IMG/VR virus record: IMGVR_UViG_2675903368_000014 | Strand: one strand, 5' to 3' | Origin: a virus | Lineage: Duplodnaviria > Heunggongvirae > Uroviricota > Caudoviricetes | Length of the DNA: 3,913 nucleotides | Part shown: piece by piece, positions 1,163-3,913 of the stretch | Numbering within the stretch: position 1 is the stretch's first letter | Layout of the letters: the number at the start of each line of letters is the position of its first letter | Notes under the pieces: generated by a model | What the model was told of the DNA's origin: nothing | The model's input: only the letters and a program-made list of their open reading frames with translations | The model's database searches: none | Program-made: the position numbers and the translations under genes

Positions 1163-1384
1163 ATGGCAGACATCATTGATTCAGCATCAGAAATTGAAGA
1201 ATTACAGCGCAACACAGCAATAAAAATACGCCGCCTGAACCACCAGGCTATATCTGCCACTCATTGTTGTGAGTGTGGCGATCCCATAGATGAGCGAAGA
1301 CGCCTGGCCGTTCAGGGTTGTCGGACTTGTGCAAGTTGCCAGGAGGATCTGGAACTTATCAGTAAACAGAGAGGTTCGAAGTGA
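1163..1384 (+). CDS. orf73: TraR/DksA-family C4 zinc-finger protein, 73 aa (lambda Orf73-like host-transcription modulator)
   Basis: Translation MADIIDSASEIEELQRNTAIKIRRLNHQAISATHCCECGDPIDERRRLAVQGCRTCASCQEDL... carries the C-x2-C-x17-C-x2-C motif (Cys35, 38, 56, 59) with the same spacing as F-plasmid TraR. Length is exactly 73 aa. Stop TGA 1382-1384. Confidence 0.85.
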   Translation: MADIIDSASEIEELQRNTAIKIRRLNHQAISATHCCECGDPIDERRRLAVQGCRTCASCQEDLELISKQRGSK

Positions 1385-1536
1385 GCGAAATTAACTAGAA
1401 GCCAAAGATAAAATCATCGCTGAGCAGGAGAAAATCGCTAACGGAGAAAAGACAGTAAGTCAGTATATGAAAACCGCATAATATCATCAGATAAAAATCG
1501 ATCGTAAAGCGAAATATTAATACCAGAATAAACGAG

Positions 1537-1560
1537 TCGAGGTAAATTATATTACCTCGA
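1537..1560. repeat. Perfect 9-bp inverted repeat with 6-nt spacer (TCGAGGTAA-ATTATA-TTACCTCGA); possible terminator of the minus-strand gene, or a dimeric operator-like site
   Basis: Positions 1537-1545 are the exact reverse complement of 1552-1560. It lies about 35 nt downstream of the minus-strand gene stop (1595-1597). On the minus strand it is followed by CTCGTTTATTCTGG, a weak T-tract; on the plus strand it is followed by A-rich sequence. Confidence 0.35.
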
Positions 1561-1594
1561 TAAATTAACTAAAACTTGCCCGCTATATACTATC

Positions 1595-2197
1595 TCATTC
1601 AGTATCATCACGCGCGGTCTGTGCATATGTTACTACCGCACCTAATGTATTAATTTTCTTTTCAACATAGATAATATTATCGTACTCATAATTGCCATAC
1701 GGATAGCAAATGCGAATATTCTCATGTAGATCGGGGTCATCCACCTCAGCTCCAGAACAACTTTTTGAACTACCGGAAGTATACCGATACGGTGCAACAT
1801 AAGACGATGTCTCTCCAGGCAAAAAATAAGTTAGTGTTGTAAGGGGTATAATCAGAAAAAATCCAGCAAATATGCACATCCCTGCATAAACCTTAAGGTA
1901 TGCTGACAGACTCTTCCAGCCGCTTTGTTTTACTATCCCCTTCTTAACCCAAAACAGAGATAACAGAAAAGCTATTCCCATGCTAAACAGAATGTAATAG
2001 TGGGATATACTCTGATTAAGAAACGTGACCCTGTAAATATCTGCCCGCCACCAGAAGAAAAAGAAAATAAAGATCAGGCCTGAAACTGTCATGCAAATCA
2101 AATAAGGATACGAATCTTTTTTCATGTTTAGCGCCCATAAAATTTTTCCTGCCCCGGACAAATTTACCATCCATTTTTTGCGCAGAAAATAGCTCAT
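1595..2197 (-). CDS. Hypothetical inner-membrane protein, 200 aa, three predicted TM helices plus a Tyr/Cys-rich C-terminal domain of about 74 aa; candidate moron
   Basis: Longest ORF in the AT-rich segment and opposite in strand to all flanking phage genes. An in-frame TAA lies immediately upstream of ATG 2195-2197. Hydrophobic stretches are PYLICMTVSGLIFIFFFFWW, ISHYYILFSMGIAFLLSLFWV and YAGMCIFAGFFLIIPLTTLTYFL. No strong Shine-Dalgarno is present; alternative starts are Met10 (2168-2170) and Met25 (2123-2125). Confidence 0.65.
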   Translation of the reverse strand: MSYFLRKKWMVNLSGAGKILWALNMKKDSYPYLICMTVSGLIFIFFFFWWRADIYRVTFLNQSISHYYILFSMGIAFLLSLFWVKKGIVKQSGWKSLSAYLKVYAGMCIFAGFFLIIPLTTLTYFLPGETSSYVAPYRYTSGSSKSCSGAEVDDPDLHENIRICYPYGNYEYDNIIYVEKKINTLGAVVTYAQTARDDTE

Positions 2198-2369
2198 TAC
2201 TTACTGCACAATAATACACAAAATTGCGTAAATTTTTTGCATGGATTTTAGCTCTTTCAGCCGACGTTTAAGGGGTAAATAGCATTTCCTAAAAGCAACT
2301 GCACCAACCCAACAGAATGAGCTACCGCTTACGTTGAGAGCAAAAAAGTGTATAGCAGCAATGAACAGC

Positions 2370-2400
2370 ATCCTCGCACTGACGAGGATTTCTTTTATCT
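2370..2400 (+). terminator. Candidate intrinsic terminator (7-bp stem, T-rich tail)
   Basis: ATCCTCG (2370-2376) pairs with CGAGGAT (2383-2389) around loop CACTGA, followed by TTCTTTTATCT (2390-2400). It is oriented for + strand transcripts leaving the AT-rich segment, about 40 nt upstream of the 55-aa ORF start. Confidence 0.4.
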
Positions 2401-2439
2401 GAACTCGCTACGGCGGGTTTTGTTTTATGGAGATGATAA

Positions 2440-2607
2440 ATGCACTTCCGAGTCACAGGTGAATGGAATGGAGAACCATTCAACAGAGTTATCGAAGCAG
2501 AGAACATCAATGACTGCTATGACCACTGGATGATATGGGCGCAGATAGCACATGCAGACATAACCAATATTCGAATTGAAGAACTGAAAGAACACCAAGC
2601 CGCCTGA
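2440..2607 (+). CDS. Hypothetical small protein, 55 aa (MHFRVTGEWNGEPFNRVIEAENINDCYDHWMIWAQIAHADITNIRIEELKEHQAA)
   Basis: ATG 2440-2442 is preceded by GGAG (2429-2432) at 7-nt spacing. Stop TGA 2605-2607 lies inside the loop of the downstream terminator hairpin. Same strand as xis/int. Below the ORF-track length cutoff; hand-translated. Confidence 0.5.
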   Translation: MHFRVTGEWNGEPFNRVIEAENINDCYDHWMIWAQIAHADITNIRIEELKEHQAA

Positions 2608-2622
2608 TGGCGGCTTTTTCTT
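2597..2622 (+). terminator. Intrinsic terminator immediately upstream of the pI element
   Basis: 8-bp stem AAGCCGCC (2597-2604) pairs with GGCGGCTT (2609-2616) around loop TGAT, followed by TTTCTT (2617-2622). The reverse strand lacks a T-tract, so it is unidirectional. Confidence 0.6.
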
Positions 2623-2665
2623 GCGTGTAATTGCGGAGACTTTGCGATGTACTTGACACTTCAGG
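2621..2665 (+). promoter_or_regulatory. pI-type cII-activated int promoter region with cII recognition repeat TTGC-N6-TTGC
   Basis: TTGC (2621-2624), GTGTAA, TTGC (2631-2634) lie directly 5' of the xis ATG (2647). This is the known arrangement of lambda pI, whose transcript starts inside xis and so yields Int without Xis. The -10 and start site are not precisely assignable by eye. Confidence 0.7.
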
Positions 2666-2865
2666 AGTGGAACGCACGCCAGCGACGCCCAAGAAGCCTT
2701 GAAACAGTTCGTCGATGGGTGCGCGAATGCAGGATATTCCCTCCTCCGGTTAAGGATGGAAGAGAGTATCTGTTCCACGAATCAGCGGTAAAGGTTGACT
2801 TAAATCGACCAGTAACAGGTAGCCTTTTGAAGAGGATCAGAAATGGGAAGAAGGCGAAGTCATGA
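2647..2865 (+). CDS. xis: Excisionase Xis, 72 aa, lambda-type
   Basis: Translation MYLTLQEWNARQRRPRSLETVRRWVRECRIFPPPVKDGREYLFHESAVKVDLNRPVTGSLLKRIRNGKKAKS is recognised as lambda Xis. The 23-nt overlap with int (2843-2865) matches lambda. Confidence 0.93.
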   Translation: MYLTLQEWNARQRRPRSLETVRRWVRECRIFPPPVKDGREYLFHESAVKVDLNRPVTGSLLKRIRNGKKAKS

Positions 2866-3913
2866 GCGCCGGGATTTACCCCCTAACCTTTATATAAGAA
2901 ACAATGGATATTACTGCTACAGGGACCCAAGGACGGGTAAAGAGTTTGGTTTAGGCCGAGACAGGAGGATAGCAATCACTGAAGCAATACAGGCCAATAT
3001 TGAGTTATTTTCAGGACACAAACACAAGCCTCTGACAGCGAGAATCAACAGTGATAATTCTGTTACGTTACATTCATGGCTTGATCGCTACGAAAAAATC
3101 CTCGCCAGCAGAGGAATCAAGCAGAAGACACTCATAAATTACATGAGCAAAATTAAAGCAATAAGGAGGGGGCTGCCTGATGCTCCACTTGAAGACATCA
3201 CCACAAAAGAAATTGCGGCAATGCTCAATGGATACATAGACGAGGGCAAGGCGGCGTCAGCCAAGTTAATCAGATCAACACTGAGCGATGCATTCCGAGA
3301 GGCAATAGCTGAAGGCCATATAACAACAAACCCGGTCGCTGCCACTCGCGCAGCAAAATCAGAGGTAAGGAGATCAAGACTTACGGCTGACGAATACCTG
3401 AAAATTTATCAAGCTGCAGAATCATCACCATGTTGGCTCAGACTTGCAATGGAACTGGCTGTTGTTACCGGGCAGCGAGTTGGTGATTTATGCGAAATGA
3501 AGTGGTCTGATATCGTAGATGGATATCTTTATGTCGAACAAAGCAAAACAGGCGTAAAAATTGCCATCCCTACAACATTGCATGTTGATGCTCTCGGGAT
3601 ATCAATGAAGGAAACACTTGATAAATGCAAAGAGATTCTTGGCGGAGAAACCATAATTGCATCTACTCGTCGTGAACCGCTTTCATCCGGCACAGTATCA
3701 AGGTATTTTATGCGCGCACGAAAAGCATCAGGTCTTTCCTTCGAAGGGGATCCGCCTACCTTTCACGAGTTGCGCAGTTTGTCTGCAAGACTCTATGAGA
3801 AGCAGATAAGCGATAAGTTTGCTCAACATCTTCTCGGGCATAAGTCGGACACCATGGCATCACAGTATCGTGATGACAGAGGCAGGGAGTGGGACAAAAT
3901 TGAAATCAAATAA
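2843..3913 (+). CDS. int: Tyrosine site-specific integrase Int, 356 aa, lambda-type
   Basis: Translation MGRRRSHERRDLPPNLYIRNNGYYCYRDPRTGKEFGLGRD... is recognised as lambda Int. By my residue count the catalytic residues sit at canonical positions: R212, K235, H308, R311, H333 and nucleophile Y342 (..MASQYRDD..). Stop TAA 3911-3913 is the last codon of the window. Confidence 0.97.
   Translation: MGRRRSHERRDLPPNLYIRNNGYYCYRDPRTGKEFGLGRDRRIAITEAIQANIELFSGHKHKPLTARINSDNSVTLHSWLDRYEKILASRGIKQKTLINYMSKIKAIRRGLPDAPLEDITTKEIAAMLNGYIDEGKAASAKLIRSTLSDAFREAIAEGHITTNPVAATRAAKSEVRRSRLTADEYLKIYQAAESSPCWLRLAMELAVVTGQRVGDLCEMKWSDIVDGYLYVEQSKTGVKIAIPTTLHVDALGISMKETLDKCKEILGGETIIASTRREPLSSGTVSRYFMRARKASGLSFEGDPPTFHELRSLSARLYEKQISDKFAQHLLGHKSDTMASQYRDDRGREWDKIEIK

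Follow-up and report, generated by a model that had tools for sequence, protein, structure and literature searches.

The DNA analysed here, IMG/VR virus record IMGVR_UViG_2675903368_000014 (3,913 nucleotides (nt), hereafter the window), runs from exo to int in a lambda-like phage, in the orientation of pL transcription, and the element in question is an AT-rich segment that lies between a TraR/DksA-like gene and the terminator tL4 and carries one membrane-protein gene on the minus strand. In lambda, this slot is occupied by two same-strand genes, ea22 (549 nt, 182 amino acids (aa)) and ea8.5 (282 nt, 93 aa). Lambdoid modules are known to be exchanged at short conserved sequences, and an accessory unit of a phage genome that is transcribed independently is reportedly termed a moron (Juhala/Hendrix 2000, summarised in PMC3594210). 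The corresponding exo-xis region of phage 434 has been deposited twice: M60848, the 1990 entry, carries the t-L4 annotation and a partial gene 'ORF-22+', and OL657226 lists the gene as CPT_434_36, 'putative membrane protein'. The genome announcement of phage 434 says only that the morons differ.

Two other described systems are comparable with the encoded protein. System #4 in Table S5B of Rousset et al. 2022 (PMC9122126) is a single protein without a Pfam family, listed with '3 TM' (transmembrane helices) and 470 occurrences, and it is located in the gpA-gpQ interval, a hotspot of P2 in which old, tin, and many further anti-phage systems reside. SieA of phage P22 is an inner-membrane superinfection exclusion protein of 162-164 aa with three predicted TM helices, which blocks DNA injection (PMC10883804).

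Our results showed that the window shared the cassette, the junctions, and the gene with phage 434, and likewise with phages 2B8 and mEp332. We put at about 85% the probability that the segment represents a 973-bp moron, the form in which phage 434 fills the variable slot that the exo-xis part of the pL operon has between the TraR-like gene and tL4, and that its single gene encodes an inner-membrane protein of three TM helices; this figure covers what the segment is and how it is built, not its role.

Replacement of the ea22-ea8.5 block

Two parts of the window, 45-1396 (97.0% identity) and 2370-3913 (97.7%), were colinear with lambda NC_001416 in the BLAST alignment, which placed the breakpoints at 1396/1397 and 2369/2370. 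The features that define the replacement are as follows.

1397-2369: 434-type substitution cassette, 973 bp, 37.8% G+C, in place of lambda 29356-30379 (1024 bp)
1381-1398, plus strand: ea22 stub of 5 codons, GTG AGC GAA ATT AAC then TAG, its first 16 nt identical to lambda ea22
2370-2399, plus strand: hairpin and T tract of tL4, terminator of the pL transcript (t-L4 in M60848; pattern scan; junction alignment)
1595-2125, minus strand: membrane-protein gene, 176 aa (invariant M25 in alignments; hydropathy and charge; AlphaFold2 (AF2) models; dN/dS)

The lambda DNA that was replaced comprises all of ea22 except the first 16 nt, the spacer between ea22 and ea8.5, ea8.5 itself, and a further 18 nt, and BLAST gave no alignment between it and 1397-2369, in which no Ea22 match was found in Pfam or PHROG. 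At the left junction, identity with lambda ended after 1396, as seen in both the junction alignment and the BLAST end (lambda ea22 starts at L003 1837). The right junction was located inside tL4: homology to lambda returned at 2370, precisely with the left arm of the hairpin, and three differences from lambda in the right arm left the stem paired. Both ends of the cassette are therefore short conserved sequences, the kind of site that is used in the exchange of lambdoid modules. The window thus resembled lambda in the identity of the slot, between the TraR-like gene and tL4/ORF55, and in the first 16 nt of ea22, but beyond the junctions there was no similarity, and the two genes for soluble proteins were replaced by one opposite-strand gene for a membrane protein.

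The composition of the cassette also set it apart. The G+C content of 1397-2369 was 37.8% compared with 46.8% in the rest of the window (chi-square p ~1e-6), the sliding G+C fell to 0.33-0.41 at ~1400-2400 from 0.43-0.54 on both sides, and the 973-nt window with the lowest G+C of the whole sequence began at 1346 and nearly coincided with the cassette. The G+C content of the cassette was below that of lambda ea22, and the ea8.5 part of lambda is likewise AT-rich (37-39% G+C). In 1385-2439, the longest stop-free stretch on the plus strand had 55 codons, and the sole long open reading frame (ORF) was located on the minus strand at 1595-2197.

These data confirmed what the initial annotation had observed, an AT-rich segment of reversed gene polarity; its count of 35 G+C in 100 at 1601-1700 was exact, and at 121-220, where it gave 54, the true count is 55. 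The true non-homologous block, 1397-2369, is slightly narrower than the extent that it gave, 1385-2439. Its placement of ea22 (182 aa) and ea8.5 (93 aa) as same-strand genes at this slot agreed with the lambda record, and its interpretation, an exchange of that module at a hypervariable locus, was supported, in that both genes were cleanly replaced by unrelated DNA. The exchange was, however, no new event in this phage, since phage 434 has long been known to have this arrangement (M60848, OL657226), and the feature is ordinary lambdoid mosaicism. A foreign origin, which it had also proposed, is suggested by the composition and by the presence of the gene in unrelated types of phages; no donor was identified, and the direction of the exchange cannot be told from the sequences.

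At 1398-1481 on the plus strand, directly after the ea22 stub, the +1-shifted frame reads EAKDKIIAEQEKIANGEKTVSQYMKTA*, with a faint DNA likeness to the 5' end of lambda ea22 (GCTGAGCAGG versus GCAGAGCAGG). This frame may be what is left of another ea22 allele, or a product of chance. When 1397-1600 was searched against phages by blastn, the copies of 434, 2B8, and mEp332 were the only matches.

Distribution of the cassette and of other slot contents

The best database matches to the window were phage 2B8 (99.8%), phage 434 (99.1%, one indel aside), and mEp332 (98.0%), and reference lambda covered only 74% of it. The cassette was present with the same junctions in both 434 records, in 2B8, and in mEp332, with an identity of 99.7-99.8% in 434 and 2B8 and 98.7% in mEp332, and these three were the only isolated phages that encoded the membrane protein among 50,697 records. 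In bacteria it was far from rare. Of 5426 complete E. coli genomes, 906 (~17%, about one in six) contained at least 80% of the cassette, always in the chromosome and usually once per genome, while the complete ea22-ea8.5 block of lambda was found in only 156, so that the 434 type was about six times commoner. The carriers included O157:H7 strains, whose copy was part of a degraded lambdoid prophage at ybhC, and strains other than O157 that had a fuller prophage at this site.

The slot had yet other contents in other phages. It held ea22 and an LprI-family gene in ev099, six genes in Chlobot, and none in PhiR70_1, and it is thus filled differently or left empty from phage to phage, as expected of the hypervariable locus. 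Since the flanks are colinear and only the content of the slot varies, the cassette is present or absent among colinear relatives; its composition is distinct, and a putative terminator of its own was recognizable by sequence pattern. Each of these properties belongs to a moron, which would also have its own promoter, for which there is a candidate at 2161-2189, and be expressed from the repressed prophage. As a genome feature, the replacement re-finds textbook lambdoid mosaicism, and the cassette was already in GenBank for phage 434. The lead that remains is its cargo gene, carried by about one-sixth of complete E. coli genomes including O157:H7 and belonging to a tiny family without an annotated function.

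Two prophages showed further variation. E. coli E189 (NZ_AP024521; L005 4431-7840) contained a 96%-identical cassette in a badly degraded prophage adjoining torI and dsdC, flanked by a frameshifted fragment of a YqaJ recombinase, an IS4 pseudogene, and an ORF that, with 114 aa, equals ORF114 of phage 434 in length. The location of this copy beside torI and dsdC shows that the cassette persists in remnants at a second chromosomal site. In E. coli 1EC187 (L023 1905-3478), whose cassette prophage is located at ybhC, genes for a HipA-family kinase and a DUF3037 protein followed just after the gene for an S24-peptidase (repressor-like), forming another accessory pair in the immunity region.

Start codon and selection of the membrane-protein gene

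The mechanically called ORF at 1595-2197 encodes 200 aa, while the homologues have 169-180 aa. All the homologues, from Salmonella, Klebsiella, Enterobacter, Cedecea, and others (eight genera), start at the equivalent of M25, which was invariant, and the product is therefore a protein of 176 aa that starts at the ATG at 2125. Two other starts were ruled out by the same alignment: ATG 2197 of RefSeq, giving 200 aa, and TTG 2161 of the 434 record OL657226, giving 188 aa. The partial 'ORF-22+' of M60848 was called in a different frame (ATG 2138).

The gene is clearly under purifying selection. The ratio of nonsynonymous to synonymous substitution rates (dN/dS) was 0.04 against another E. coli copy and 0.08 and 0.14 against two Salmonella lineages, and more than 30 positions were invariant across homologues of 42-78% identity. 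A segment of decaying junk, in which the ORF is a chance or dead frame, might explain why the protein matched no database family with a function and why the 434 record and RefSeq differ on the start codon. With dN/dS of 0.04-0.14, invariant residues shared across genera, and confident AF2 models, such an origin is extremely improbable, and the conservation data exclude a dead ORF.

Architecture of the protein and size of its family

In 176-aa numbering, hydropathy analysis placed the TM helices at ~8-26, 40-60, and 84-102. The loop between TM2 and TM3 contained four lysines and no acidic residue, and the C-terminal 77 residues were net acidic and included the conserved Cys123 and Cys140. The positive-inside rule would put the N-terminus in the cytoplasm and the C-terminal domain in the periplasm, where Cys123 and Cys140 could plausibly form a disulphide. 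The AF2 models, which had predicted local distance difference test (pLDDT) scores of 86 (whole protein) and 88 (C-terminal domain), consisted of three long helices followed by a five-stranded small beta-barrel. Conservation was concentrated in the predicted periplasmic domain and not in the helices.

Known families gave little to go by. The protein matched no family in Pfam, NCBIfam, or PADLOC, and neither it nor the Salmonella homologue matched a defence model of PADLOC-DB v2. Foldseek against BFVD gave no match at E 0.001 or better, and structure search with the whole model gave only generic helical matches and no significant fold. PHROG 1416, to which no function is assigned, matched aa 113-200 of the 200-aa ORF (E 2e-50); since it models only the last 90 residues, some of the calls in phage records may be truncated. 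A hidden Markov model profile search of 1.84 billion representative proteins found only 57 relatives, of which the full-length ones had ~165-200 aa and the remainder were shorter, mostly partial sequences. The clusters that were checked were named hypothetical, a few evident mislabels aside, and came from Enterobacterales together with one Pseudomonas cluster. On these sequences, the relatives form a small, mainly enterobacterial family. No functional study of the gene was found in the literature.

P22 SieA resembled the window protein in that it is of similar size, has three predicted TM helices, is prophage-borne, and acts as a single-gene system; it is also transcribed against its neighbours from its own promoter, and the window gene is likewise opposite to its neighbours. 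SieA differs, however, in its long loop after TM1 and in having no C-terminal beta domain, and no homology between the two was detected (hhalign probability 0.1%).

Relatives in the P2-like hotspot and on chromosomes

Homologues were found in P2/186-like prophages between gpA and the portal gene, in Salmonella (70% and 57% identity), Klebsiella michiganensis (55%), and a metagenomic sequence (49%), so that four separate lineages of the family occupy the gpA-gpQ locus of P2. System #4 of this hotspot belongs to the same family: the window protein was 51% identical to it over 168 aa (E 1e-56), with the same length and architecture, and the two differ in location, between gpA and gpQ of P2-like prophages for system #4 and in the lambdoid pL operon for the window copy. 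By frequency, the family ranks fourth among the cargo of this anti-phage hotspot. In the supplementary text files of PMC9122126, the motifs diagnostic of the family were confined to Table S5B and absent from the sequences of the cloned systems, and, as far as these files go, system #4 appears not to have been assayed for defence by Rousset et al. 2022.

At the DNA level, the window resembled the Salmonella copies in the gene, ~130 nt upstream of it, and ~30 nt downstream, and nowhere else, which indicates that the gene together with its upstream region is the mobile unit. This unit is compact, compositionally distinct, and oppositely oriented, and it was found in the variable regions of two unrelated groups of temperate phages. 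The phage-borne copies were AT-rich (39-42% G+C versus 48-54% in their hosts), including the Salmonella P2-like copies (41-42% versus 53%).

Several of the hotspots contained other genes as well. In four Salmonella hotspots (L006, L009, L017, and L018, 5100-5890), two same-strand ORFs, the first of 81 or 123 aa and the second of 119 aa, preceded the membrane gene; L008 and L019 had only one of these two small companions, and L007 had neither. The companions matched nothing in Pfam or PADLOC. In K. michiganensis (L025-L027, 2281-5623), the homologue was accompanied by a 790-aa protein, to which AAA_16 was a weak match, and by the 279-aa partner of that protein, encoded on the opposite strand; this pair is possibly a separate defence system of the NTPase type.

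Outside prophages, the homologues in Enterobacter and Klebsiella were chromosomal, located beside LysR-type regulators, and had a near-native G+C content; the Cedecea homologue was chromosomal too.

Possible roles of the membrane protein

The gene is transcribed against the pL operon. Its orientation away from pL, together with an upstream region and a hairpin of its own, makes expression from the repressed prophage probable. After induction, transcription from pL would cross it in the antisense direction. The target of the protein is probably at the cell envelope, because the conserved part is predicted to face the periplasm.

Among single roles, the likeliest, with odds somewhat short of even, seems to be that the protein shields its lysogen against other phages through superinfection exclusion or a block to DNA entry, because the family is repeatedly present in the old/tin locus of P2. 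The model for such a role would be P22 SieA with its block to DNA injection. In P4 satellites, 6 of 8 randomly chosen hotspot loci of unknown function gave protection from phages (PMC13586616). An anti-phage role at the level of the envelope is plausible but unproven. In its fullest form, the proposal would be that the 176-aa protein founds a single-gene exclusion or defence family that shuttles between the lambdoid ea22 slot and the old/tin hotspot of P2 and, acting from the inner membrane or periplasm, blocks the entry of competitor genomes; we offer it tentatively.

The chromosomal homologues favour a role that is independent of phages. They are located outside prophages in Enterobacter and Klebsiella, with LysR neighbours and a host-like G+C content, and also in Cedecea; in addition, purifying selection was strong throughout the family, and the slot of ev099 contained another envelope-related gene, that of the LprI-family lysozyme inhibitor. 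The protein could then be a lysogenic-conversion or host-fitness factor that acts on envelope physiology (stress, permeability, or periplasmic protein interaction) and has no anti-phage role, the phage merely ferrying a bacterial gene. Taken by itself such a role is unlikely, although because of the chromosomal homologues it is nearly as likely as protection; the four lineages in the gpA-gpQ locus, which is enriched for anti-phage genes, speak against it.

A membrane-damaging effector of abortive infection, or a toxin, that stays silent until infection or induction was considered as well, since small multi-TM proteins are common defence effectors (PMC9122126, discussion) and the K. michiganensis homologue shares its hotspot with the 790-aa protein. 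The gene, however, is usually alone, without a sensor partner, in several P2 loci as well as in the lambdoid slot, conservation lies in the predicted periplasmic domain and not in the helices, and ~17% of complete E. coli genomes carry the gene without an obvious antitoxin, all of which makes this role improbable. Since the classical phage 434 carries the gene, 434 lysogens offer a ready genetic system for its function, whether in protection from phages or otherwise.

Candidate transcription signals around the gene

The candidate signals and the second, smaller ORF of the cassette, all on the minus strand, are as follows.

2161-2189: candidate promoter, TTTTCT-17 nt-TGgTAAATT (extended -10-like), seen by eye and in alignments, 36-64 nt upstream of ATG 2125
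1537-1560: terminator-like hairpin with a 9-bp stem and the T-rich tail CTCGTTTATT (pattern scan), 35 nt downstream of the stop codon of the membrane gene
2208-2221: TTGT-N6-TTGT direct repeat, 'CII binding site consensus' in OL657226
2201-2371: 56-aa ORF, 'putative membrane protein' CPT_434_35 of phage 434, with no family match

The extended -10-like element (TGgTAAATT, 2169-2161) was partly conserved in the Salmonella and Cedecea copies, while a scan for consensus sigma-70 promoters found no site upstream of the gene. The candidate promoter would start the transcript ~30 nt before ATG 2125, inside the longer ORF calls, and the hairpin at 1560-1537 could serve as its terminator.

The direct repeat was rejected as a CII-dependent promoter (2221-2208). 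The pattern is loose, occurring by estimate once per ~16,000 positions per strand, so that several sites are expected by chance in a 48-kb genome, similar tandem TTGTGC boxes were located upstream of the Salmonella P2-like copies, and the spacing to the -10-like elements was mismatched. That spacing does not match the one of pRE or pI, and we know of no lambda-type CII in P2-like phages.

The 56-aa ORF is probably not a gene, because it lies within the upstream region of the real gene. Its alignment with the Salmonella copies required frame-breaking indels, and scans of this ORF and of ORF55 with Pfam, NCBIfam, and PADLOC were uninformative.

Neighbouring genes

The genes that flank the cassette are given in the order of the window.

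Left end: C-terminal part of exo, orf60a, orf63, and a 216-nt ORF, in that order, before the TraR/DksA-like gene
1163-1384, plus strand: TraR/DksA-type zinc-finger gene, lambda 'orf73' (Pfam PF01258, E 7.8e-9; PHROG 54; 97% identity to lambda)
2440-2607, plus strand: ORF55, right flank (PHROG 676; ORF55 in M60848), common to lambda and 434
2647-2865: xis, in the right part
2843-3913: int, at the right end

The TraR/DksA-type gene is the final gene shared with lambda to the left of the replacement. An Rfam scan of the window gave no match. To the right of the cassette, the window differed from phage 434 at 2608-2646 (434, L002 4236-4666): ORF114 (345 nt), which is located between ORF55 and xis in 434, was absent from the window, as it was from 2B8 and mEp332, and the sequence there was lambda-like. 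The window, 2B8, and mEp332 thus combine a 434-type cassette in the ea22 slot with a lambda-type ORF55-xis junction. The t'I of the 434 records has its counterpart in a bidirectional hairpin at 2597-2616, and TTGCGTGTAATTGC (2621-2634), which comes immediately after this hairpin, occupies the place where those records have the CII box of the pI promoter. Beyond attP, outside the window, phage 434 carries a gene annotated in its record as an NleC-like type III effector metalloprotease (L002 6459-7055).
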